Source: Phyllobates terribilis (lineage: Eukaryota). From it: a stretch of 64,000 nt of DNA. The notes under the pieces were generated by a model. The model had not been told where the DNA came from and ran no database searches. It saw only the letters and a list, made by a program, of their open reading frames with translations. Every line of letters begins with the position of its first letter. Within the stretch, counting starts at the first letter, position 1. The position numbers and the translations under genes were made by a program. This document shows, one piece after another, positions 9,455 to 63,845 of this stretch. Location of the stretch: contig NW_027362761.1 of the NCBI RefSeq assembly GCF_046119375.1, positions 201,934,001-201,998,000 of the forward strand, read 5' to 3'.

Positions 9455-11091
<1,637 letters not shown>

Positions 11092-15749: not shown

Positions 15750-17399
15750 CAGTTATATGAAAAAGTTTGGGCACCCCTATTAATCTTAAGCTTAATGTTT
15801 TATAAAAATTGGTGTTTTTGCAACAGCTATTTCAGTTTGATATATGTAATAACTGTTGGACACAGTATTGTTTCTGCCTTGAAATGAGGTTTATTGTACT
15901 AACAGAAAATGTGCAATCTGCATTCAAACAAAATTTGACAGGTGCATAAGTATGGGCACCTCACCAGAAAAGTGACATTAATATTTAGTAGATCCTCCTT
16001 TTGCAAAAATAACAGCCTCTAATCGCTTCCTGTAGCTTTTAATGATTTCCTGGATCCTGGATGAAGGTATTTTTGACCATTCCTCTTTACAAAACAATTC
16101 TAGTTCAGTTAAGTTTGATGGTCGCCGAGCATGGACAGCCCTCTTCAAATTATCCCACAGATGTTCAATGATATTCAAGTCTGGGGACTGCGATGGCAAT
16201 TCCAGAACATTGTAATTGTTCCTCTGCATGAATGCCTGAGTAGATTTGTAGCGGTATTTTGGATCATTGTCTTGCTGAAAGATCCATCCCCAGCGTAACT
16301 TCAACTTTGTCACTGATTCTTGAACATTATTGTCAAGAATCTGCTGATACTGAGTGGAATCCATGCGTCCCTCAACTTTAACAAGATTCCCGGTGCCAGC
16401 ATTGGCCACACAGCCCCAAAGCCTGATGGAACCTCCACCAAATTTTACTGTGGGTAGCAAGTGTTTTTCTTGGAATGCTGTGTTTTTTTGCCGCCATGCA
16501 TAATGCCTTTTTGTATAACCAAACAACTCAATCTTGGTTTCATCAGTCCACAGGACCTTCTTCCAAAAAGAAATTGGCTTCTCCAAATGTGCTTTTGCAT
16601 ACCTCAGCCGACTCTGTTTGTGGCGTGCTTGCAGAAACGGCTTCTTTCGCATCACTCTCCCATACAGCTTCTCCTTGTGCAAAGTGCGTTGTATAGTTGA
16701 CCGATGCACAGTGACATCATCTGCAGCAAGTTGATGCTGCAGCTCTCTGGAGGTGGTCTGAGGATTGTCCTTGACTGATCTCACCATTCTTCTTCTCTGC
16801 CTTTCTGAAGTTTTTCTTGGCCTGCCACTTCTGGCCTTAACAAGAACTGTCCCTGTGTTCTTCCATTTCCTTACTATGATCCTCACAGAGGAAACTGACA
16901 GGTTAAATCTCTGAGACAGCTTTTTGTATCCTTCCCCTGAACAACTATGTTGAATAATCTTTGTTTGCAGATCATTTGACAGTTGTTTTGAGGAGCCCAT
17001 GATGCCACTCTTCAGAGGAGATTCAAACAGGAGAACAACTTGCAAGAGGCCACTTTAAGTAGCTTTTCTCATGATTGCATACACCTGGCTATGAAGTTCA
17101 AAGCTCAATGAGGTTACAAAACCAAAAAAAGTGCTTTAGTAAGTCAGTAAAAAGTAGGTAGGAGTATTTAAAACAAGAAAATGATAAGGGTGCCCATACT
17201 TATGCACCTGTCAAATTTTGGTTGAATGCAGTTTGCACATTTTCTGTTAGTACAATAAACTTCATTTCAAGGCAGAAACATTACTGTGTCCAACAGTTAT
17301 TACATATATCAAACTGAAATAGCTGTTGCAAAAACACCAATTTTTATAAAACATTAAGCTTAAGATTAATAGGGGTGCCCAAACTTTTTCATATAACTG
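15750..17399 (-). mobile_element. Full-length Tc1 element with IR/DR-type TIRs (1650 bp)
   Basis: About 210-bp TIRs starting CAGTTATATGAAAAAGTTTGGGCACCC, with an inner DR AAGTATGGGCACC and a TA TSD. Inserted into the hairpin of a Harbinger MITE. Confidence 0.95.
15978..17000 (-). CDS. Tc1 DD34E transposase, uninterrupted 340-aa ORF
   Basis: Starts MGSSKQLS. Contains a paired-like HTH, GRPRK, WTDETK, FQQDNDP and SPDLNIIE, with 34 residues between the second D and the E. Confidence 0.92.
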   Translation of the reverse strand: MGSSKQLSNDLQTKIIQHSCSGEGYKKLSQRFNLSVSSVRIIVRKWKNTGTVLVKARSGRPRKTSERQRRRMVRSVKDNPQTTSRELQHQLAADDVTVHRSTIQRTLHKEKLYGRVMRKKPFLQARHKQSRLRYAKAHLEKPISFWKKVLWTDETKIELFGYTKRHYAWRQKNTAFQEKHLLPTVKFGGGSIRLWGCVANAGTGNLVKVEGRMDSTQYQQILDNNVQESVTKLKLRWGWIFQQDNDPKYRYKSTQAFMQRNNYNVLELPSQSPDLNIIEHLWDNLKRAVHARRPSNLTELELFCKEEWSKIPSSRIQEIIKSYRKRLEAVIFAKGGSTKY

Positions 17400-21959: not shown

Positions 21960-22530
21960 TGTAAGGTAGCGCTATTCATCATGTTGAGGGGCACTCACTT
22001 CACCGGGTCAATTAAAGCATACATGCAACGTTTTCCGGTAATCTACAGTCCAGCAGTTTATTAAACATCATAAACTGCCTATAACATAGTCCATCTCAGT
22101 GGCTCGCAGGCATGTTACACATGTAATATCCAAGAGCCTTTCCAGTGGCAGATATGCCCACTTGGCTTCAGATACAGCCTTCAGCAAGGTTACAATATCA
22201 ATGTCCATATCAAGCAGAGTTTTTACCTTTGCCGGGTCTAGCGGCTTCCATCAGCTCTGTTCTGCCAAAGCTGTGGCTTAAGGCTCACCAGGTGTGGCCC
22301 CCCCCCCAGGCCACGTGCCTTCCAGGGCTCATGGTGTCCCAGACACAGGGATCAGGTCTTTTGTCTTCCCCCCACTGTTTCAAAACCACCAGGATTTATA
22401 TATCCTTCTGTGCGCACAGGACCTGTGATGATGTCACAGTCATGTGATCAGTCACCTGAAGGGGAGGTACGTGGTCAGCCAGAACACACCCCCTGGACAT
22501 TTTAGTAATGCAGCAATACGCTGCATTACA
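21960..22530 (-). promoter_or_regulatory. 3' LTR of the CGN-FXR1 element
   Basis: 571-bp copy of 27299-27865, preceded on the minus strand by the polypurine tract AGAGGGGGGG-TATA (about 22531-22544). Confidence 0.88.
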
Positions 22531-22586
22531 TATACCCCCCCTCTGTTCAAACTTGTGGGGTTGAACACATAATATGCACAATCACA

Positions 22587-24800
22587 TTATAACCCACGGT
22601 TCACAGAGAGACCATGTACTGGACATTTGCGCTGCTCAGCCCCTGGAACATTAGTCATCAACATTAGCTCATTCCTTAGGAACCTACCATCTGTCATTGT
22701 CACTAACTTCGTCAAGTCACATTTCCGAGTCGTAACCTTGTCAGACCTCCCCCGCTCCCAGCGGTCAATACAGCAGTGTGACTCACTTGCCCTTGTATCT
22801 AAGGTCAGGTCCGACTTCGTACTGTCCCGTACTCTATTGGGTCGTTTGTATGGGCCTCTCAGACCTGAGTTACTGGAGGTCTCACTACCTCTAAACCCAC
22901 AACCCACGCCCACTATCCTCAGGACATCTTGAAAGGTCTCTAACTTCTACTGTAGCCGTTCTATTATTTAGAGGGCCCTTTCTCTGTCTGGTCTCACAAT
23001 TTATAGATGGCTGCCATCTTCTGCTGCTCAGGCGATGCTGTCTTTCCATTCGCAGTCTGGCGAGATTCAACTGTTCTACCTCTCGCAGGTAGGTCACTCG
23101 GTACTCCATCAGCATTCGTATATATGCAAGGTTTTTTTCCGTTCCTACAGCGGAGAATGACACCATGCCGTCTTCATCCGGTATCCAGTCCTGATGATCA
23201 CGTGGACTTCTTACTTTCATCACACCAGACTTCATTACCATCATTTGCATGGCTTGGCCATTTCTCCCAATGAGCTTTCTTACCAGAGCATGAGGCACCC
23301 GGATGACCTCTTCCCGCAGACTTTGAGCTTTTCTCATAAGCTCCAGTTGTCTAATGGCTTGTTCCGTCTTCAACCGGACAAACCGCCTAGTGCGAACACA
23401 TCGCCAGTGCATGTCACTTAGGATAGCCACCCTCTTCACTGTGACTTCGGTTGTAGACAGGACCACCAGCTGTTTAGCTTCTGAGGTCGAGTACACCTTA
23501 CAGGCTCCCATGGCCTTCTTAAACTCCTCATGCACGGACTCGCTGGTGCATTTGACGCGCCCCCTGGCCCGTGGGGTACTCGGCAGCCGGGCCTCTGGTT
23601 GCCGGGGAATATCACGGTGGCTGGCCCGGTCCGTGACTCAGGGCTGTCAGTGAAATGGGGGAATGCTTTTATATGGAGATTTTTGGTATTTTTTCATGAC
23701 GCCACCTGTGGATTCTGGTAAGAGGTTACCAGCGCTGCGGCAGTCCACTGAGGCTGATGTTAGGGGGCAGCTATGATGGGACGGCTCCCCACAGGTGGAG
23801 CGGGCCTCAGGGCAGAGTAGATAGATAGATGGTGGAATGGTGTGCTGGGCGTTGTAGTGCGGTGAGGATCAGTGGTGCCGGTGAAGAAACAGACAGAGGC
23901 TGTTCGATGCAGTCGTCCAAGGTTTTACTTCCAGTTCTTAGGCAAATCACAAATGCACTTTGCAGGTGAAGGCCTCCTTCGTCGCGCTGCGTTCACCGGG
24001 CAGGGGTTCAGTCCTTTCTGAGCAAATTTAGGAATGCCTGGCGGAACCCCACTTTCATATGTACCTATCTTGACCTTTTCCACACTCGGTCCTTCTCACC
24101 GTGGTCCTACGCTGCTCACTCTCATTCCCGCTCGGGTATGCTGAAGTCCTTCCTGTACGTCGGATCCGGGATCAACCTGACCCCCTGGGGTTTTGAGTGT
24201 AGCAACCGATCCCTCCTGATCACCTGGCAGGAGCGGGGCGTACGGGTGCCGTCCTGCACGCGCCGTACCCCCTGGGATCCCTCAAGTAGAATGGAGCCTG
24301 CTCCCTGCTCCCCTCCGGGGCCTCGATCCTGGGCCCTAACTTGTGGAGCAGAGCTCTGACTGAGCCTCTGCTCCCGGACTGTTCGTCTGAACAGCCCTAA
24401 CTAGAACTGCCCACTGTACTGGACTGAACTGAACTCAACTCTCCTAGACCTAATATGGCTTCCTATATATACTTACTGTATATGTGCTCCGTGTATCTGT
24501 TTCCTCCATCCACACCCACTATTGGTTCCCCCTACCTTTGGGTTCCCCCCCTACTCCAGCCAGGGCCAGGGCTCAGCAGAAAACTACATTGCGTCTTGCC
24601 CCTCCTGCTGGCCTGGAGCAGTGTTGTGTTGGATGTAGGTGGTTGGGGTTCCGTGCAGCACTCCCTCCTTACCTGAGAGAAGGGAGACACCACACCTCGG
24701 GGTGAGGTGCAGTATCTCTGTGGCGACTGAACCCTCAGGGGCGCCACACATTCAGTCTCTCAAATCTTCAGCTACATCTATGAGGCACTTGTACCGAGAA
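22587..24800 (-). pseudogene. fxr1: Intronless FXR1-derived segment (KH0 region, KH2, RGG/C-terminal region), split by a solo LTR
   Basis: YKCLIDVAEDLRD (about 24800-24757), then after the solo LTR CTSESVHEEFKKAMGAC..KRVAILSDMH..VP..LV.KLIGRNG..KSGV..EDGMV.F..VGT..YLREVEQL. In a shifted frame, DSTKSDLTLDTRASESH matches FXR1 DNTESDQTADTDASESH. Confidence 0.87.
23553..24748 (-). mobile_element. Gypsy-type solo LTR nested in the FXR1 segment
   Basis: TGACGCGCCCCCTGG...CAGGGGCGCCACA with a 4-bp TSD CATT (23549-52 and 24749-52). Ends are shared with the 29203-30388 copy. Confidence 0.85.
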
Positions 24801-25307
24801 GTTTCTGTTTCCCCAGTGGTCTCCAAACGATCATCAGGTTCAGGATTCAGGGACAACTAACTTTCAGCTTCTTCACCCTGTATGCTTCCCCTGAGCTGAC
24901 TCACAGCTATGAATTCAAGAATTCTCCTCAGGTCCACCTTCTCATGGTATAAAGGATTAAGCGCACCTTGTTTGCCCTTTCCCTTCTCCAAGGCGGCCTC
25001 GTTCACTCATTGGTACTTGCCAGGCGAGCTCGAAAACTTTTTCCTCTAGCTCAGCTACTCGCCTCTTAGCAGCCCATCTCTGAAGCTCTTCCTGCTTCAA
25101 CTGCTCCTATATCAGTAGAGTGCTCTCAGACCTCTCTGTCTCCAATGCGCCCACTCGGCTCTCGACAGCCAGTCTCTCAATCTTCTATTGCTTCAAATGG
25201 GCTTCTAGCGTCTCCTTGAGCTCCTTGATCTCGGCTCTTACATCCACTGAATCATCCAAGCTCGCATTATTCGAGGTGGTATTTACTTCATACCTCCCTT
25301 CTCCAGT

Positions 25308-26200
25308 GGCAAACTCCTGACCCTGGTCTGTGGCTTCTCTGATAGACTCCTCCATCTTTTCCCGCTCAGCTTCCATCCTGCCGATTCTATCCTTAAGGCA
25401 CGTCTCTGCCCTCTGGAGTTCATCACAGAACATCTGCAGCTCCTTCACCTGAGCTTCCAGTCCTAGGATCTTTCTGCGGAGAACATCATTCTCATCACGG
25501 GTGTCCTGTAGAGTGGTCTCAATCACTTGGTGCATGTGCTCTGCATCTGCCTTATCATCCTCTAATTTTTTCTTAACCTTGAGGATATCCTCATAGTCTC
25601 TCTTGGTTTGTTGCAGTTCCCTATTGAATTGTTCACACAGTTGTTCTAGGTCTTGATCATGTCCAGAAACTTCATCCTTCAGCGCCCCTTTTAAGGCAGA
25701 TAGCTCCCTATCCCTCTGGTGTAGACCCTCATCCAGACTTTGCTTCTCCTGAATCAGCTCTGACTGCACCAGGGAGAGACGCTTTTTCATCTCGTACAGC
25801 TCATCTTCAGACTCCACTTTCTCAAGCTTCAACTGAAAAACCTCCTCTTTGGTTTTGCGGAGGTTCTCTTTATTTTTCTGGAACATTTCCTTCCATTTGT
25901 TGATTTCCTCGCTGCTTTCCTCCAGTTCTCGCTGCAAGTTCCTCACAACCTGGTTTATTTTCTGCCGTTCAGACACCAGGCTCAACTGGTCCTAGGACAC
26001 GTTCTCCATGTTTTCCTTAGTTACTGCACGTCGCTCTGATACTGCTGCCTGACAGGCTCCAGCTCTTGGTCATGTTTGGCCACCTCCTCTTTCAGTGCCC
26101 CTTTCAGGGCTGTTGGTTCCTGATCCTTCAGTCTCAGTAGATCATCCAGCTTGTAACGAATCTGCAGAACTGCATCCAACTCTTCCACCTGATCTTCATT
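25308..26200 (-). pseudogene. cgn: Intronless cingulin coiled-coil rod fragment inside the LTR element
   Basis: ORFs 26021..26311 and 25185..25985 contain [58 protein letters not shown] and IETTLQDTRDENDVLRRKILGLE, all collinear with the cingulin rod. They are joined by a 1-nt frameshift and two stops near 26023-25990. Confidence 0.88.
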
Positions 26201-26721
26201 GTTGTCCGATACTGTACCGGAGGTTGCTACTGGCAACGTCACCTCCTCTTCCCTCCTGATCTCCTCTGCTTCTAAAGGAGGATCCACACTTGGAATAAAG
26301 GCACACAGCATTGCATTTTCTTTATTTACCCTTTCAGCAAAGGCTACAGGAGCAACTTTTTTGTGGCCTTTGCGCCTTCGACGACGAGAGGGGGGACTTT
26401 CTCACCTTGTTTAACTCCTCCTGACTGAACTCTTTTTCTACTTTCGTAGTGTCACTGTCAGCTGTGGGGTCTGTGTCACTCCCCATGGTGTTATGGACCA
26501 ACAAGTCACCTCCCACTTTGATGTTAACCCCTTCTTCTGGAGCTAATCAGTTAGCAACGGTCGAATTGTCATTTTAAGGCGGTACCAACACACGACCAGT
26601 AACCAATTTTGGTATTCTACGCTCCACCCTCTTTTGGACAACCACACCTGTAGGGTTTTTTTAAAAAAAAAAAAAAACACGCGATAGTCTTAGGACCCAG
26701 TTCACAACATCTCTTACCACC

Positions 26722-27015
26722 TCACTGGGAACTCTGGGATAGTGCCAGCACCACAGGAGAACTCAAGGAATGGTCTGCTGCCGCCATTCTGTAACATGCC
26801 AACAGCTCCCGCCATTCCTGTACCACGTCCTGCTGCAGCTGCAACAGGCACTTTAATCGCTCAATAGCTTCAGTTTCATTTTCTGCTCCCTTCAGAGCCA
26901 TCTTTATCAGCTCCTGCATTTCTTCAGGACACTCCATTTTGCTGCAGAACGTTTGCAGCTGGTCATCCCACCACTTCTCCATTCCGTCTGGGGATACTGC
27001 TCCATTCATAGCCAT
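26722..27015 (-). CDS. Short upstream helical ORF of the LTR element, unknown product (about 97 aa)
   Basis: The 3' part of track ORF 26722..27234 (MAMNGAVSPDGMEKWWDDQLQ...) lies between the PBS-proximal repeats and the main ORF. No homology recognised. Confidence 0.35.
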   Translation of the reverse strand: MAMNGAVSPDGMEKWWDDQLQTFCSKMECPEEMQELIKMALKGAENETEAIERLKCLLQLQQDVVQEWRELLACYRMAAADHSLSSPVVLALSQSSQ

Positions 27016-27277
27016 CGCGGTATGCTGTTCACACAACTCTCCCTGGAAAAATTTTCGCGGCCCCACCGAGCCACAGCAAACCGGGTTTGAGTGCGACGAC
27101 AATTTTCGTAACCCCGCCGAGTTACAGCCAGATGCTTTGATCTTCGTGGCCCCGCCGAGCCACAGCAAACCAGGTTTGAGTGCGACGACAATCTTCGCGG
27201 CCCCACCGAGCCACAGCCAGATGCTTGCATCCATGTTAGTCGTCCTGTGCCATTACCCCTTGCAACCAGGCTGCAGT

Positions 27278-27296
27278 TGCCCGCATTCTCTAACCA
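27278..27296 (-). other. Primer-binding site, tRNA-Ala type
   Basis: TGGTTAGAGAATGCGGGCA lies 2 nt from the 5' LTR. It nearly complements the 3' end of vertebrate tRNA-Ala(AGC), ...TGCCCGCATTCTCCACCA (recalled). Confidence 0.8.
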
Positions 27297-27298
27297 AT

Positions 27299-27865
27299 TG
27301 TAAGGTAGTGCTATTCATCATGTTGAGGGGCACTCACTTCACTGGGTCAATTAAAGCACACATGCAACGTTTTCCGGTAATCTACAGTCCAGCAGTTTAT
27401 TAAACATCATAAACTGCCTATAACATAGTCCATCTCAGTGGCTCGCAGGCATGTTACACATGTAATATCCAAGAGCCTTTCCAGTGGCAGATATGCCCAC
27501 TTGGCTTCAGATACAGCCTTCAGCAAGGTAACAATATCAATGTCCATATCAAGCAGAGTTTTTACCTTTGCCGGGTCTAGCGGCTTCCATCAGCTCTGTT
27601 CTGCCAAAGCTGTGGCTTAAGGCTCACCAGGTGTGGCCCCTCCAGGCCACGTGCCTTCCAGAGCTCATGGTGTCCCAGACACAGGGATCAGGTCTCTTGC
27701 CTTCCCCCCACTGTTTCAAAACCACCAGGATTTATATATCCTTCTGTGCGCACAGGACCTGTGATGATGTCACAGTCAGTGATCAGTCACCTGAAGGGGA
27801 GGTACGTGGTCAGCCAGAACACACCCCTTGGACATTTTAGTAATGCAGCAAGCCGCCGCATTACA
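27299..27865 (-). promoter_or_regulatory. 5' LTR of the CGN-FXR1 element
   Basis: 567 bp, TGTAAT...TTACA on the minus strand. Contains a TATA-like GATATATAAATCC and an AATAAA on the minus strand. Confidence 0.88.
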
Positions 27866-41454: not shown

Positions 41455-43002
41455 CACTGCTCAAAAAAATAAAGGGAACACTCAAATAACACATCCTAGA
41501 TATGAATGAATGAAATATTCTCATTGAATACTTTGTTCTGTACAAAGTTGAATGTGCTGACAACAAAATCACACAAAAATCATCAATGGAAATCAAATTT
41601 ATTAACCAATGGAGGCCTGGATTTGGAGTCACCCACAAAATTAAAGTGGAAAAACACACTACAGGCTGATCCAACTTTGATGTAATGTCCTTAAAACAAG
41701 TCAAAATGAGGCTCAGTATTGTGAGTGGCCTCCACGTGCCTGTATGACCTCCCTACAACGCCTGGGCATGCTCCGGATGAGGTTGCGGATGGTCTCCTGT
41801 TGGATCTCCTCCCAGACCTGGACTAAAGCATCCGCCAACTCCTGGACAGTCTGTGGTGCAACGTGACATTGGTGGATGGAGCGAGACATGATGTGGGGAA
41901 CGGGCTGGCCAGTCCATAGCTTCAATTCCTTCATCTTGCAGGAACTGCTGACACACTCCAGCCACATGAGGTCTGGCACTGTCCTGCATTAGGAGGAACC
42001 CAGCGCCAACCGCACCAGCATATGGTCTCACAAGGGGTCTGAGGATCTCATCTCGATACCTAATGGCAGTCAGGCTACCTCTGCCGAGCACTGGAGGGCT
42101 GTGCGGCCCTCCAAAGAAATGCCACTCCACACCATTACTGACCCACTGCCAAACTGGTGATGCTGAAGGCTGTTGCAGGCAGCAGATCGCTCTCCACGGC
42201 GTCTCCAGACTCTGTCACGTCTGTCACATGTGCTCAGTGTGAACCTGCTTTCATCTGTGAAGAGCACAGGGCGCCAGTGGCGACTTTGCCAATCCTGGTG
42301 TTCTGTGGCAAATGCCAAGCGTCCTGCACGGTGTTGGGCTGTGAGCACAACCCCCATCTGTGGATGTCGGGCCCTCATACCACCCTCATGGAGTCGGTTT
42401 CTAACCGTTTGTGCAGACACATGCACATTTGTTGCCTGCTGGAGGTCATTTTGCAGGGCTCTGGCAGTGCTCCACCTGTTCCTCGCACGAAGACGGAGGT
42501 AGCGGTCCTGCTGCTGGGTTGTTGATCTCCTACGGCCCCCTCCATGTCTCCTGGTGTACTGACCTGTCTCCTGGTAGAGCTTCCAGCCTCTGGACACTAC
42601 GCTGACAGACACAGCAAACCTTCTTGCCACAGCTCGCATTGATGTGCCATCCAGGATGAGCTGCATTACCTGAGCAACTTCTGTGGGTTGTAGAGTCTGT
42701 CTCATGCTACCACGAGTGTGAAAGCACAACCAACATTCAAAAGTGACCAAAACATCAGCCAGAAAGCATTGGTACTGAGATGTGGTCTGTGGTCCCCACC
42801 TGCAGAACCACTCCTTTATTGAGGGTGTCTTGATAATTGCCAATAATTTCCATCTAATGTCTATTCCATTTGCACAACAGCATGTGAAATTGATTGTCAG
42901 TCAGTGTTGCTTCCTAAGTGGACAGTTTAATTTCACAGAAGTTTGATCTACTTGGAGTTATATTCTGTTGTTTAAGTGTTCCCTTTATTTTTTTGAGCAG
43001 CG
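41455..43002 (-). mobile_element. Tc1-family element with a disrupted transposase
   Basis: TIR CACTGCTCAAAAAAATAAAGGGAACAC. ORFs 42070..42843 (VLFTDESRF) and 41713..41979. Confidence 0.9.
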
Positions 43003-43008
43003 TATATA

Positions 43009-44533
43009 CAGTGCATTGTGAAAGTATTTGGCCCCCTTGAACTTTTCTACATTTTGCAACATTTCTGGCTTCAAACATAAAAAGATATAAAATTCTATTT
43101 TTTTGGGAAAGAATCAACAACAAGTGGGACACAATTATGAAGTGGAACGAAATTTATTGGATATTTTAAACTTTTTTAACAAATTAAAAACTGAAAAGTG
43201 GGGCGTGCAATATTATTCGGCCCCCTTGAGTTAATACTTTGTAGCGCCACCTTTTGCTGCGACTACAGCTGCAAGTCGCTTGGGGTATGTCTCTATCAGT
43301 TTTGCACATTGAGAGGCTGAAATTCTTGCCCATTCTTCCTTGCAAAACAGCTCGAGCTCATTGAGGTTGGATGGAGGGCGTTTGTGAACAGCAGTTTTCA
43401 GCTTTTTCCACATATTCTCGATTGGATTCAGGTCTGGACTTTGACTTGGCCATTCTAACACCTGGATATGTTTATTTTTGAACCATCCCATTGTAGATTT
43501 AGCTTTATGTTTGGGATCATTGTCTTGTTGGAAGATAAATCTCCGTCCCAGTCTCAGGTCTTTTGCAGACTCCAACAGGTTTTCTTCCAGAATGGTCATG
43601 TATTCGGCTCCGTCCATCTTCCCATCAATTTTAACCATCTTCCCTGTCCCTGCTGAAGAAAAGCAGGTCCAAACCTTGATGCTGCCACCACCATGTTTGA
43701 CATGTTACGCCAAACATATCGTTTTGCATTGTGGCCAAAAAGTTAGATTTTGGTTTCATCTGACCAGAGCACCTTATTCCACATGTTTGGTGTGTCTCCC
43801 AGGTGGCTTGTGGCAAACTTCAAAAGAGACTTTTTATGGATATCTTTGAGAAATGGCTTTCTTCTTGCCACTCTTCCACTCTATGGACAGACTCTCCCGC
43901 CTCAGCTGTAGATTTCTGCAGTTCATCCAGAGTGATCATGGGCCTTTTGGCTGCATCTCTGATCAGTCTTCTCCTTGTTCGAGATGAAAGTTTAGAGGGA
44001 CGGCCGGGTTTTGTTAGATTTGCAGTGGTCTGATACTCCTTCCATTTCAATATGATCGCTTGCACAGTGCTCCTTGAGATGTTTAAAACTTGGGAAATCT
44101 TTTTGTATCCAAATCCGGCTTTAAACTTCGCCACAACAGTATCTCGGACCTGCCTGGTGTGTTCCTTGGTCTTCATGATGCTCTCTGCACTTGAAACAGA
44201 ACCCTGAGACTATCACAGAGCAGGTGCATTTATACGGAGACTTGATTACACACAGGTGGATTCTATTTATCATTACCAGTCATTTAGGACAACATTGGAT
44301 CATTCAGAGATCATCACTGAACTTCTGGAGTGAGTTTGCTGCACTGAAAGTAAAGGGGCCGAATAATATTGCACGTCCCACTTTTCAGTTTTTAATTTGT
44401 TAAAAAAGTTTCAAATATCCAATAAACTTCATTCCACTTCACGATTGTGTCCCACTTGTTGTTGATTCTTCCCAAAAAAATTTGAATTTTATATCTTTAT
44501 GTTTGAAGCCAGAAATACTTTCACAATGCACTG
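43009..44533 (-). mobile_element. Tc1 element with internal deletions
   Basis: TIR CAGTGCATTGTGAAAGTATTT and TA TSD. Fragments MKTKEHTRQVRD... and FQQDNDPKH...SPDLNPIE. Confidence 0.92.
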
Positions 44534-45594: not shown

Positions 45595-47121
45595 CAGTGG
45601 GGAAAAAAGTATTTAGTCAGCCACCAATTGTGCAAGTTCTCCCACTTAAAAAGATGAGAGAGGCCTGTAATTGACATCATAGGTAGACCTCAACTATGAG
45701 AGACAAAATGAGAAAACAAATCCTGAAAATCACATTGTATGATATGGAAAGAAATTTTTTTCAAATTTTGGTGAAAAATAAGTAATTGATCAATTACAAA
45801 AGTTCATCTCAATACTTTGTTATATATCCTTTGTTGGCAATGACAGAGGTCAAACGTTTTCCGTTTTTCACAAGGTTGGCACTGTTGCTGGTATGTTGGC
45901 CCATTCCTCCATGCATATCTCCTCTAGAGCAGTGATGTTTTGAGGCTGTTGCTGGGCAACACGGACTTTCAACTCCCTCCAAAGGTTTTCTAAAGGGTTT
46001 AGATCTGGAGACTGGCTAGGCCACTCCAGGACCTTGAAATGCTTCTTACAAAGCCACTCCTTCAATGCCCTTGCTGATTGAAGGAGGTTTGCACTCAAAA
46101 TCTCACGATACATGGCCCCATTCATTCTTTCATGTACATGGATCAGTCGTCCTGGTCCCTTGGCAGAGAAACAGCCCCAAAGCATGATGTTGCCACCCCC
46201 ATGCTTCACAGTAGGTATGGTGTTCTTTGGATGCAACTCAGCATTCTTTCTCCTCCAAACACACCAAGTTGTGTTTCTACCAAACAGTTCTACTTTGCTT
46301 TCATCTGACCATATGATATTCTCCCAATATTCTTCTGGATCATCCAAATGCTCTCTAACAAACTTCAGACGGGCCCGGACATGTAATGGCTTAAGCAGGG
46401 GGACACTTATGGCACCGCAGGATCTGAGTAGTGTGTTACTGATGGTAGCTTGTGTAACGTTGGTTCCAGCTCTCTGCAGGTCACTCACTAGGTCCCCCGT
46501 GTGGTTTTGGGATTTTTGCTCACCGTTCTTGAGATCATTTTGACCCCACGGGGTGAGATCTTGTGTGGAGCCCCAGATCGAGGGAGATTATCAGTGGTCT
46601 TGTATGTCTTCCATTTTCTAATTATTGCTCCCACAGTTGATTTTTTTCACACCAAGCAGCTTGCCTATTGCAGATTCAGTCTTCCCAGCCTGGTGCAGGG
46701 CTACAATTTTGCTTCTGGTGTCCTTCGACAGCTCTTTGGTCTTCACCGTAGTGGAGTTTGGGAGTATGACTGTTTGAGGTTGCGCACAGGTGTCTTTTAT
46801 ACTGATAATAAGTTCAAACAGGTGTCAGTACTACAGGTAATGAGGAGGACAGAGGAGCCTCTTAAAGAAGAAGTTACAGGTCTGTGAGAGCCAGAAATCT
46901 TGCTTGTTTGTAATTGACCAAATACTTAATTTTCCACCAAAATTTTAAAAAAATTTCTTTCCAGACAAAAAATCAGACAATGTGATTTTCAGGATTTGTT
47001 TTCTCATTTTGTCTCTCATAGTTGAGGTCTACCTATGATGTCAATTACAGGCCTCTCTCATCTTTTTAAGTGGGAGAACTTGCACAATTGGTGGCTGACT
47101 AAATACTTTTTTTCCCCACTG
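45595..47121 (-). mobile_element. Tc1 element with a disrupted transposase
   Basis: TIR CAGTGGGGAAAAAAGTATTTAGTCAGCC and TA TSD. ORF 45868..46488 contains WSDESK and SPDLNPLE. Nested in an older Tc1-like remnant (about 45514-47313). Confidence 0.92.
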
Positions 47122-52536: not shown

Positions 52537-55130
52537 TGTGGCACCCCAGGGGTCTGGTTACCACAGTAATAGAAATATTACGTCTGAGAGCAAGTGGGAG
52601 GTTCCCTGGTCAGGAGCCCTTAAACATGCAACACCTCCTGTCCCAAACCAGATAGGGGAGGAATCTGCCCTATATAAACTGGATCTGGGGTGGGGTTAGT
52701 GGAGTCAGAGCCTGGAGTTAGTTCCAGACACAGGGAAAGTAACAGCGAGGAGCTCTGTAGGAGCAGGAGCTGAAGACCAGGGACTTGAGCTAAGCGGAGT
52801 TCGTCCTGGCAGAAGACGCTAAGAACCGGACACAGGAGTTCGAGGCTGTGGGGACTTATACAGTGGGTACGGAAAGTATTCAGACCCGTTTACATTTTTC
52901 ACTCTTTGTTTCATTCCAACCATTTGGTAAATTCGAAAAAGTTCATTTTTTTTCTCATTAAAGTACACTCTGCACCGCATCTTGACTGAAAAAAACAGAA
53001 ATGTAGAATTTTTTTCAAATTCATTAAAAAAGAAAAACTGAAATATCACTTGGTCATAAGTATTCAGACCCTTTGATCAGACACTCATATTTAAGTCACA
53101 TGCTGTCCATTTCCTTGTGATCCTCCATGACCTGGTTCTACTCCTTCATTGGAGTCCAGATGTGTTTAATTAAAGTGATAGGACTTGATTTGGAAAGTCA
53201 CACACCTGTCTATATAAGACCTCACAGCTCACAGTGCATGTCAGACCAAATGAGAATCATGAGCTCAAAGGAACTGCCCAAGGAGATCAGAGACAGAATT
53301 GTGGCAAGGCACAGATCAGGCCAAGGTTACAAAAGAATTTCTGCATTACTCAAGGTTCCTAAGAGCACAGTGGCCTCCATAATCCTTAAATGGGAGAAGC
53401 TTGGGACCACCAGAAGTCTTCCTAGACCTGGCCGTCCAGCCAAACTGAGCAATCGTGGGAGAAGAGCCTTGGTGAGAGAGGTAAAGAAGAACCCCAAGAT
53501 CATTGTGCCTGAGCTCCAGAGATGTAGTAGGGAGATGGGAGAAAGTTCCACAAAGTCAACTATCACTGCAGCCCTCCACCAGTCGGGCCTTTATGGCAGA
53601 GTGGCCTTAAGGAAGCCTCTCCTCAGTGCAAGACATATGAAAGCCCGCATAGAGTTTGCTCAAAAACACATGAAGGACTCCCAGACTACGAGAAATAAGA
53701 TTCTCTGGTCTGATGAGACGAAGATAGAACTTTTTGGTGATAATTCTAAGCGGTATGTGTGGAGAAAACCAGGCACTGCTCATCACCTGCCCAATACAAT
53801 CCCAACAGTGAAACATGGTGGTGGCAGCATCATGCTATGGGGGTGATTTTCAGCTGCAGGGACAGGATGACTGGTTGCAAATGAAGGAAACATGAATGCT
53901 GCCAAGTACAGAGATATCCTGTATGAAAACCTCTTCCAGAGTGCTCTGGACGTCAGACTTGGCCGAAGGTTCACCTTCCAACAAGACAATGACCCTAAGC
54001 ACACAGCTAAAATAACAAAGGAGTGGCTTCAGAACAACTCTTTGACCATTCTTGACTGGCCCAGCCAGAGCCCTGACCTAAACCCAATTGATCATCTCTG
54101 CAGAGACCTGAAAATGGCTGTCCACCAACGTTCACCATCCAACCTGACAGAATTGGAGAGGATCTGCAAGGAAGAATGGCAGAGGATCCCCAAATCCAGG
54201 TGTGAAAAACTTGTTGCATCATTCCCAAGAAGACTCATGGCTGTACTAGCTCAAAAGGGGGCTTCTACTCAATACTGAGCAAAGGGTCTGAATACTTATG
54301 ACCATGTGATATTTCAGTTTTTCTTTTTTAATAAATTTTCAAAAATTTCTACATTTCTGTTTTTTCTCCAGTCAAGATGGGGTGCAGAGTGGACTTTAAT
54401 GAGAAAAAAAAACTTTTTAGAATTTACCAAATGGCTGCAATGAAACAAAGAGTGAAAAATGTAAAGGGGTCTGAATACCCTCCGTACCCACTGTATATAC
54501 CCAGCAGCAGAAACCCGCCGGCAGGGGATTTCAGGTCCTCTGGCCATAGAAGCCCGGAGGCTCAGTCACGAGCAAGGGACCAGCAGAGCCATCGAGGAGC
54601 GGGGGCTATCAGAAGGCCCCAAGTCACCAGCCATACGGGTGAGCACCACACGGTACACTCAGGGACGTGCGCTACTTCCACTCGCTTACAGCAAGGTAGC
54701 CAGGAAGAGTGCAGATAGACGGGGAGGCCTACAACTCCACCTGGCCAGGAGAACTCCAGTTTGCTCACAGACTGACCAGGCCTCTTATGCTAGCCAGTAC
54801 TCCCGGGAGGGTCTGCCTTATCACCATCAGTAAAGACCCTGAACTGCACTGCAAAGCCTCTGAGTCGTTCCTGCTGCGCTCGTGCACCATAACTCCCATC
54901 ATCCAAACTCACTACCCTGAGGCTATACTCCTCCCGTGGGGAGTTATACTACACTCTGCTGCCCTCACAACATCAGCCTCAGAGGTCTGCTCAGCAGCGG
55001 CGGTTCTTATAGACCGCAATCCACGGGTGGCGTAGTCGGACATTGCATTATACTGATACAGAGACTGCCACAACCTGGGTCTGACCACCCTGAGCCAAGG
55101 GACCGGGTCGCCACTACTACTCCCAGCATT
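52537..55130 (+). mobile_element. Related solo LTR in the opposite orientation, interrupted by a Tc1 and truncated at its 3' end
   Basis: Begins TGTGGCACCCCAGGGG, has a TATA-like CTATATAAA near 52670, and shows 3' similarity to the other two solo LTRs. A Tc1 is inserted at 52861. Confidence 0.65.
52861..54493 (+). mobile_element. Full-length Tc1 whose transposase has a single in-frame stop
   Basis: TIR CAGTGGGTACGGAAAG and TA TSD. The frame runs from ATG 53259 to 54278, broken only by TGA at 53844-46 (WG*FSAAG). Confidence 0.93.
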
Positions 55131-62195: not shown

Positions 62196-63845
62196 CAGTT
62201 ATATGAAAAAGTTTGGGCACCCCTATTAATCTTAAGCTTAATGTTTTCTTAAAATTGGTGTTTTTGCAACAGCTATTTCAGTTTGATATATGTAATAACT
62301 GTTGGACACAGTAATGTTTCTGCCTTGAAATGAGGTTTATTGTACTAACAGAAAATGTGCAATCTGCATTCAAACAAAATTTGACAGGTGCATAAGTATG
62401 GGCACCTCACCAGAAAAGTGATATTAATATTTAGTAGATCCTCATTTTGCAAAAATAACAGCCTCTAGTCGCTTCCTGTAGCTTTTAATGATTTCCTGGA
62501 TCCTGGATGAAGGTATTTTTGACCATTCCTCTTTACAAAACAATTCCAGTTCAGTTAAGTTTGATGGTTGCCGAGCATGGACAGCCCTCTTTAAATGATC
62601 CCACAGATGTTCAATGATATTCAAGTCTGGGGACTGGGATGGCCATTCCAGAACATTGTAATTGTTCCTCTGCATGAATGCCTGAGTAGATTTGGAGCAC
62701 TGTTTTTGATCATTGTCTTGCTGAAAGATCCATCCCCTGCGTAACTTCAACTTTGTCACTGATTCTTGAACATTATTGTCAAGAATCTGCTGATACTGAG
62801 TGGAATCCATGCGTCCCTCAACTTTAACAAGATTCCCGGTGCCGGCATTGGCCACACAGCACCAAAGCATGATGGAACCTCCACCAAATTTTACTGTGGG
62901 TAGCAAGTGTTTTTCTTGGAATGCTGTGTTCTTTTGCCGCCATGCATAACTCCTTTTTGTATGACCAAACAACTCAATCTTGGTTTCATCAGTCCACAGG
63001 ACCTTCTTCCAAAAAGAAATTGGCTTCTCCAAATGTGCTTTTGCATACCTCAGCCGACTCTGTTTGTGGCGTGCTTGCAGAAACGGCTTCTTTTGCATCA
63101 CTCTCCCATACAGCTTCTCCTTGTGCAAAGTGCGTTGTATAGTTGACCGATGCACAGTGACACCATCTGCAGCAAGTTGATGCTGCAGCTCTCTGGAGGT
63201 GGTCTGAGGATTGTCCTTGACTGATCTCACCATTCTTCTTCTCTGCCTTTCTGATGTTTTTCTTGGCCTGCCACTTCTGGCCTTAACAAGAACTGTCCCT
63301 GTGTTCTTCCATTTCCTTACTATGTTCCTCACAGTGGAAACTGACAGGTTAAATCTCTGAGACAGCTTTTTGTATCCTTCCCCTGAACAACTATGTTGAA
63401 TAATCTTTGTTTTCAGATCATTTGACAGTTGTTTTGAGGAGCCCATGATGCCACTCTTCAGAGGAGATTCAAACAGGAGAACAACTTGCAAGTGGCTACT
63501 TTAAGTAGCTTTTCTCATGATTGCATACACCTGGCTATGAAGTTCAAAGCTCAATGAGGTTACAAAACCCAAAAAAGTGCTTTAGTAAGTCAGTAAAAAG
63601 TAGGTAGGAGTATTTAAAACAAGAAAATGATAAGGGTGCCCATACTTATGCACCTGTCAAATTTTGTTTGAATGCAGATTGCACATTTTCTGTTAGTACA
63701 ATAAACCTCATTTCAAGGCAGAAACATTACTGTGTCCAACAGTTATTACATATATCAAACTGAAATAGCTGTTGCAAAAACACCAATTTTAAGAAAACAT
63801 TAAGCTTAAGATTATTAGGGGTGCCCAAACTTTTTGATATAACTG
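62196..63845 (-). mobile_element. Second full-length copy of the same Tc1 family (1650 bp)
   Basis: Same TIRs and TA TSD. The ORF (63446-62442) ends 6 aa early because of a GGA>TGA change. Confidence 0.95.

Follow-up and report, generated by a model that had tools for sequence, protein, structure and literature searches.

A captured FXR1 module in a poison-frog LTR retrotransposon, with evidence of protein-level purifying selection during transposition

Background

The capture of host genes by LTR elements is already known, and the captured pieces are usually regarded as hitchhikers or as material from which host genes may arise. In maize, the LTR element Bs1 carries fragments of three host genes, and titles cited for it speak of a single hybrid ORF and of mutations in its ATPase fragment that are not random (PMC13317346). 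LTR-mediated retroposition, as described in the main text of Tan et al. 2016 (PMC5131818), produces partial, intronless captures, also from several genes, by template switching, and some of these captures went through later rounds as non-autonomous elements. Endogenous retroviruses (ERVs) of birds have repeatedly and independently captured a host RNA-binding domain, the cold-shock domain, according to one section of PMC12287698, and the VANC proteins of Vandal transposons are accessory proteins borne by a transposon that serve the element (described in PMC13317346). Literature searches on fxr1 in LTR retrotransposons of frogs and poison frogs, the broader of which were judged by title and start of abstract and covered main texts outside subscription journals, found no paper on such an element, and "fxr1" is absent from the main text of the Dendrobates genome paper. 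Here we describe a locus that resembles LTR-mediated retrocopies in that part of a host mRNA, copied without introns, sits between LTRs. It lies in a 64,000-nucleotide stretch of Phyllobates terribilis DNA, hereafter the window, and all features of the element given below are on the minus strand.

Results and Discussion

The element in the window

The FXR1 module is housed in a pol-less LTR element at 21960-27865. Its 3' LTR (21960..22530, 571 bp, TG..CA) and 5' LTR (27299..27865, 567 bp) differ by 2.1%, with 12 mismatches in 567 aligned bases and 4 further gap bases, and the 4-bp target duplication agrees at 3/4 bases. The primer-binding site (PBS; 27278..27296), presumably for tRNA-Ala, is near-identical to that of an autonomous Gmr1-like partner described below, with which the polypurine tract (PPT) and the sequence preceding it (22531..22565) share 30 identical nt. 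Pfam finds no reverse transcriptase (RT), RNase H or integrase in seven longer frames of the window, in the annotated P. terribilis protein P0001, or in two open copies of the family. With paired TG..CA LTRs, PBS, PPT, target duplication and dispersed copies, the element is a non-autonomous LTR retrotransposon. The K2P distance between its LTRs is 0.0215, which gives an age of about 4.3 My if one takes the rate used in PMC11152451, 2.5e-9 per site per year.

The window copy is dead: compared with an open copy it has nine stops, seven frame-shifting indels and a nested TG..CA insertion of 1,196 bp (23553..24748, with an AATG target duplication of 4 bp) that splits KH0 and is probably a solo LTR of another family. 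Pieces 70-85% similar to this insertion occur at about ten other loci. A short, hairpin-like inverted repeat opens the LTR (22505-22530 and 27840-27865 of the window); it is present in the copies inspected and missing from the start of the partner's LTR. Elsewhere the window holds several transposase frames of Tc1/mariner type with inverted repeats, recognised by motifs, at 9674-10766, 15978-17054, 42070-44209, 45868-46587, 53121-54278 and 62442-63500, two of which are near-identical copies of one another.

Copy number and a Gmr1-like partner

Copies of the family exceed one thousand by a wide margin. Searching with the protein yielded 4,337 first-look candidates, and the 150 that were scored are all 87-100% identical; the exact 30-nt PPT motif occurs 2,560 times in the 10.6 Gb genome, with the FXR1 core present at 35 of the first 60 sites. 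Copies have different flanks and thus occupy independent insertion sites; a 4-bp target-site duplication is found in 22/22 copies with clean ends; and the LTRs of a copy are 94 to 99.8% identical to each other (99.2-99.8% in young copies). The closest annotated proteins come from poison frogs; P0001 matches the window module at 83% identity. At about 115.5-116.7 Mb of one sequence (G000 C12) and on small contigs (C30 and C62), many copies with equal scores lie together, which suggests that these copies were amplified inside larger tandem or segmental repeats and not by retrotransposition. One copy contains a nested Ty3/Gypsy element of chromovirus type, with Gag, protease, RT, RNase H, integrase and chromodomain (L046:3887-7687).

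FXR1-family sequence is absent from 23 PPT sites, 22 of which were examined; at least 20 belong to one family of autonomous type (L182-L235), whose ORFs encode an integrase (residues 79-248) ahead of the RT (549-708; L196) and a SCAN domain in Gag (L227). Integrase before RT is the defining order of Gmr1-like Ty3/Gypsy elements, and the partner family, by its domain order and SCAN-containing Gag, is to all appearances one of them. Such elements occur in frogs (PMC4131045). The partner is abundant, and many of its copies are internally deleted. Since the PBS, the PPT region and the 3' end of the LTR are common to both, we infer that the partner mobilises the FXR1 element in trans. No protein match links the window family's ORF to the Gag and protease of the partner, and the FXR1 element, which has no gag-PR-IN-RT-RH ORF of its own, is a derivative of the Gmr1-like group, not a full member.

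Layout of the captured ORF

Elsewhere in the family a single ORF of about 1,000-1,170 codons fills the interior; it consists of an N-terminal part, a cingulin coiled coil, a linker, a 41-codon LONP1 fragment and the FXR1 module. The N-terminal part (26123..27020 in the window) carries a relic of a Gmr1-type protease in relatives from other frogs; a Gag origin of the N-terminal 225 residues was considered and dropped, there being no match. The cingulin fragment (25299..26122) is intronless, 67% identical to Pseudophryne cingulin and 81-92% identical to the host gene in nucleotides, with dS of 0.10-0.17 and omega of 0.7-1.8 against the latter in six copies. This is a younger, neutrally evolving capture, the lateness following from a dS tenfold lower than that of the FXR1 module. 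The cingulin part is being trimmed by in-frame deletions. The linker matches only generic coiled coils in the Atlas, and prolines are not avoided in the coiled-coil part (8/218 shared vs 14/417 private changes, p 0.82), so that even the coil gives no sign of selection. The LONP1 fragment (24875..24943; E 5e-11 for the family protein P0008) is 54 nt shorter in the window copy and, like cingulin, evolves neutrally.

The module itself is contiguous and without introns in the order of host exons 5 (end), 6, 7, 9, 10, 11, 12 and 14, as mapped on the host gene, and therefore derives from a spliced mRNA. Its first 13 codons, from about FXR1 residue 126, lie at 24755..24793, followed beyond the nested insertion by the main part of KH0 with its C-terminal helix (23346..23550), the junction of the KH1 deletion (23314..23345), KH2 with its GxxG loop and an I304M replacement (23092..23313), the FXR1 helix after KH2 (the CC2/NES region, residues ~360-380; 23011..23091) and, in a second frame, a C-terminal remnant from the end of exon 13 and exon 14 that has lost the RGG box (22590..22946), the host's RG-rich stretches being deleted or altered. 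The two frames are parted by a frameshift near 22890: that at 22894-23637 matches Pfam KH_9 (KH0, E 1.5e-16) and weakly KH_1 and FXMRP1_C_core, the KH_1 match of KH2 falling under the curated cut-off, and that at 22590-22946 weakly matches FXR_C1. Sequence matches of the module in the PDB are to FMRP only.

An earlier note, made from the letters of the window alone, had described a module that lacks KH1 and the Agenet/Tudor region and keeps the GxxG loop. This is borne out: nine residues separate the QLE of the KH0 helix from EEVIRVP of KH2, 60 codons (exon 8 and three more) are missing relative to host FXR1, together with three further codons in the window family, no Tudor/Agenet domain is found in the module, and the loop reads GRNG (23257-23268). 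Its estimate by eye of 40-50% identity to FXR1 agrees with the 49% measured for amino acids (63% for nucleotides, over 180 codons; host FMR1 gives 47% and 53%, and KH2 is 42-47% identical to its host counterpart). The placing of the module's start at 23548 needs correction, given that KH0 is split by the insertion and begins upstream of it, and the "single-KH protein" has two KH folds, KH0 and KH2, only one of which has a GxxG loop. The 214 stop-free codons are there as described and lose their value as evidence of selection, since the window copy is dead and a stretch of such length is within chance; the 195-codon core is free of stops in 19/35 sampled copies.

The host loci of FXR1 and FMR1 were found through the Tudor family, and among the 27 candidates scored there was no third locus; FXR2, annotated in Pelodytes (P0029), may be absent from the P. 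terribilis genome. Of microsimilarity at junctions, today's host sequence shows just 4 matching nt at the edges of the KH1 deletion, the capture junctions themselves having diverged too far. Loss of KH1 by deletion is preferred to cryptic splicing, for which the present host exon 9 offers no in-frame AG where one would be needed.

Protein-level selection on the FXR1 core

A first sample of 60 copies, picked through their FXR1 protein and long ORFs, gave a shared dN/dS of 0.30 in the core and 0.85 elsewhere; such picking biases omega (0.81 for private variants), and the sample was therefore replaced by one chosen regardless of protein. This decisive sample started from the first 60 of the 2,560 PPT matches in genome order and retained 31 copies with at least 500 aligned codons, two of them a near-identical tandem pair; a variant present in three or more copies was counted as shared. 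In the core, shared variants comprise 39 nonsynonymous and 56 synonymous changes (dN/dS 0.27) and private variants 137 and 50 (1.06; p 2.7e-7 against shared), whereas in the non-FXR1 rest of the ORF the two ratios are 0.91 and 1.01 (shared variants, core against rest, p 2.1e-7). The depletion persists without CpG changes and at a five-copy threshold, and it is limited to the coding frame and the antisense frame that shares its third positions, other frames giving 1.5-3.3. Maximum-likelihood omega for the core is 0.36 in 11 young copies and 0.46-0.48 in all, as against 0.93-1.02 for the rest, and pairs of young subfamilies give 0.26-0.38. The GxxG loop is retained in 35/36 sampled copies and 13/14 element proteins. 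Against host FXR1 the core has dN 0.35-0.39, dS 0.9-1.4 and omega 0.27-0.42 (kappa 3), values that include the host branch and are near saturation. A star-like set of 30 copies chosen by the linker shows 18 nonsynonymous and 16 synonymous shared changes (0.43, p 0.12; without CpG changes 0.19, p 0.03), and in this set the core is indistinguishable from cingulin (p 0.41).

By part, the shared dN/dS is 0.13-0.16 in KH0, 0.30 in the first helix, 0.36 in KH2 and 0.26 in the second helix, as compared with 0.74 in the FXR1 C-terminal part, 0.97 in cingulin and 0.91 in LONP1. Selection thus acts on KH0, KH2 and the helices beside them alone, with the C-terminal part near-neutral. Upstream of the module no stop is shared and 25 are private, and indels are in frame in 29/30 shared cases vs 43/87 private ones: the whole ORF has been kept open, and its amino-acid sequence has been kept in the FXR1 core only, in variants inherited through transposition only. 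We are highly confident that the core was under purifying selection at the protein level while the element transposed.

The earlier note had reached a similar view, that most of the divergence from FXR1 accumulated under protein-level selection inside the mobile element, and had named dN/dS among copies as a check; the contrast of shared with private variants, its frame specificity and the subfamily values uphold it, the shared ratio in the core being far from 1. Its reasoning was weak. It set out from LTRs said to differ by about 3% (2.1% as measured) and from the open stretch; the LTRs date only the insertion in the window (about 4 My), not the capture, and the stretch is compatible with chance. 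A better match to another KH protein or to a fast-evolving paralogue, raised as an objection, was not found, the elements being sister to frog FXR1 with support of 100/98.

An AlphaFold2 model of a young-copy module (pLDDT 90.7, pTM 0.56) predicts intact KH0 and KH2 folds, KH0 superposing on that of FMRP (4OVA) at 0.7 A, and a single 41-residue helix that leaves KH0, spans the deletion without a break and enters KH2, with the CC2 helix after it. Column conservation in 11 element proteins correlates with that in 40 host-family proteins (Spearman 0.35, 194 columns). The hydrophobic positions of CC2 and the basic residue after GxxG are kept, N202 is replaced by T in the window family, and conservation is lowest in CC1 (31%). 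The element is covered by contigs from four runs of unclear type.

Relatives in other frogs and history of the capture

A profile search of 1.84 billion representatives was the source of more diverged members; a protein search restricted to near-equal length found nothing, the relatives being longer. Relatives that lack KH1 through the same deletion appear in the annotations of Ranitomeya imitator, R. variabilis and Dendrobates tinctorius. Two proteins of Anomaloglossus baeobatrachus (P0019, P0022) are Tudor-less FXR1 copies in which KH1 is present with a dead GxxG loop, possibly an earlier stage of the same capture. Several relatives (Ranitomeya, Dendrobates, Hyla) retain the Gmr1-type protease relic (E down to 8e-13), which is absent from the two Anomaloglossus proteins, P0022 being the one tested, and some relatives' proteins terminate in translated sequence of the same PPT. 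A second, Ranitomeya-type family in P. terribilis was sought and rejected, the best identity being 57% among 150 scored of 4,179 candidates. Several frog annotations name such copies "fxr1-like", "FMR1 homolog" or "cingulin-like" genes.

The tree places the 14 modules together (100/98) next to frog FXR1, Anomaloglossus being the first to branch off. Changes common to 14/14 modules, S191C and I304M among others, support this grouping, which long branches could also favour. Host FXR1 differs by 0.007 between P. terribilis and Ranitomeya, and the elements stand about 0.8 substitutions per site from host FXR1; if they were inherited vertically, the capture would be older than the split of these frogs (PMC11152451 cites about 36 My for the Dendrobatidae). 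The order of events would be capture, loss of KH1 function, deletion of KH1 and, in the window family, capture of cingulin.

Nine annotated proteins of Hyla sarda (P0089, P0183, P0302-P0308), on at least five scaffolds, include longer ones with the protease relic, a long coiled coil and, from about residue 121, a KH0-KH1-KH2 module of FMR1. Some copies have an intact KH1 loop, others a broken one. Hyla modules nest within FMR1, and a single origin of dendrobatoid and Hyla modules is rejected (AU p 7e-5, from 23/32 rows with a quick LG+G4 tree); the phylogeny points to a separate capture, of FMR1, at the same boundary, both captures beginning at about residue 121-127.

What the module may do

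The neighbouring unselected captures act as an internal control, and a piece selected beside them points to a benefit for the element. The reading that we prefer, with a probability of about 0.4, is that the module serves as an RNA adaptor in cis. The element's own RNA would be bound by KH2 and linked by KH0 to BICD2 and dynein or to host FXR granules; the coupled RNA would thereby arrive at the particles of the helper, which would probably favour its transport and copying, and the 800 upstream codons would be a passenger whose frame is kept just to let the ribosome arrive at the module. We infer that the protein is made, binds RNA and acts in cis, and likewise the choice of partner. The benefit would fall mainly on the encoding copy, since a protein that helped all copies alike would decay in a family of thousands, where copies with a broken gene would gain equally. 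Direct binding of BICD2 by human FXR1 requires residues 127-199, FXR proteins recruit mRNA to dynein, and segment 176-201 is modelled at the interface with BICD2, as set out in parts of one preprint (10.64898/2026.09.25.754448); the proposed link to BICD2 is an analogy drawn from that preprint and from the coincident boundaries. Both captures start at the BICD2-binding boundary and KH0 is the most constrained part, which speaks for an adaptor. Against it, the modelled interface is not specially conserved (element segment 176-201 is 35-65% identical to host FXR1, no better than the remainder of KH0), N202 is replaced by T, and KH1 is lost. A complex prediction that paired the element KH0 (95 aa) with peptides of two frog BICD exons, each in duplicate, was folded without the alignment and with the coiled coil cut in two; its score of 0.00 speaks neither for nor against the link. 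In human FXR1, N202S breaks the FXR1 network and loss of KH1 function (G266E) lowers mRNA binding, to judge from parts of a second preprint (10.1101/2023.11.05.565677), so that the KH1-less protein may bind RNA poorly.

The same selection data would fit a chaperone or packaging aid that acts in cis and needs no motor, coating and protecting the element's RNA or keeping it translated and passing it to the helper's Gag much as a nucleocapsid does. The retention of GxxG and of the basic residue after it, and an element with no match to Gag, agree with this, which we nevertheless consider rather unlikely. Somewhat less unlikely is a decoy against silencing, in which a protein devoid of Tudor and KH1 enters host FXR1 or FMR1 complexes and weakens the silencing of transposons by small RNAs: Drosophila dFmr1 silences transposons with Piwi and Aub and needs its Tudor/Agenet region to bind Piwi (parts of PMC6381874), both frog captures omit exactly that region, and the hydrophobic positions of CC2 are retained. 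Such a factor would act in trans, however, and be open to exploitation by cheating copies, CC1 has diverged most in the window family, with N202T besides, and no frog data were found for a role of this kind.

Shared variants alone do not separate selection on the element from selection on the host, and many copies are annotated as genes in RefSeq, as would be expected if one or a few LTR-flanked loci had been domesticated and the dispersed copies were dead spin-offs. This we regard as improbable: the dS of 0.9-1.4 to the host is at least five times the 0.18 expected for two chromosomal lineages over 36 My at 2.5e-9 per year (figures from PMC11152451), and the copy tree has many nested lineages, with LTR identities spread over the whole range given above. 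A frame kept open only to evade nonsense-mediated decay, or a region constrained as RNA, would suit the upstream 800 codons, where omega is near 1 and stops and frameshifts are purged; for the core this is largely refuted, and very improbable overall, since amino-acid changes are depleted about fourfold, synonymous sites are not, and the effect is confined to the coding frame.

That a second capture, of the other paralogue, took place in Hyla suggests that proteins of the fragile-X type stand at a step that limits the success of retrotransposons in vertebrate germ lines, an idea that a module of 200 residues makes testable. A bolder version, which we regard as doubtful, is that Gmr1-type parasites of frogs at least twice exchanged their own Gag and Pol for a stolen fragile-X module, taken from FXR1 in the poison-frog case and from FMR1 in Hyla and both times cut at one boundary, as a ticket onto BICD/dynein RNA transport to the germ-line sites of helper particles. 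If true, non-autonomous elements would have gained a new way to survive, one that has contributed to the giant genomes of poison frogs. The module can also be read as a deletion experiment made by nature on FXR1, in which KH0 and KH2 persist without KH1.

Comparison with known systems

The module shares with host FXR1 and FMR1 the KH0 fold, a KH2 with GxxG, and the CC2 helix, and departs from them in having no Tudor/Agenet, KH1 or RGG box and in N202T and I304M; it is not a full member of the fragile X family. The element is like Gmr1-like elements in its PBS, 30-nt PPT region, LTR end, 4-bp target-site duplication and the protease relic of its relatives, whereas the body of its LTR differs and the frog FXR1 family has no Gag, protease, integrase or RT. 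VANC belongs to a DNA transposon and acts by demethylation at the DNA level (from the account in PMC13317346), and is an analogy for the decoy only. The bird elements are retroviruses, not Ty3/Gypsy, and number 46 ERVs, with no selection test in the section of PMC12287698 that describes them. The cases of Tan et al. are young retrocopies at few insertion sites, and "purifying" does not occur in the main text of PMC5131818, whereas the frog capture is old and has been selected while transposing. The frog element works in the manner of Bs1 and of the retrocopies of Tan et al. Unlike Bs1, it belongs to a vertebrate, occurs in thousands of copies, was recently active, is found in several genera, and has one RNA-binding module under selection; what is new is that one captured piece has, very probably, been selected during transposition beside unselected pieces of the same ORF.
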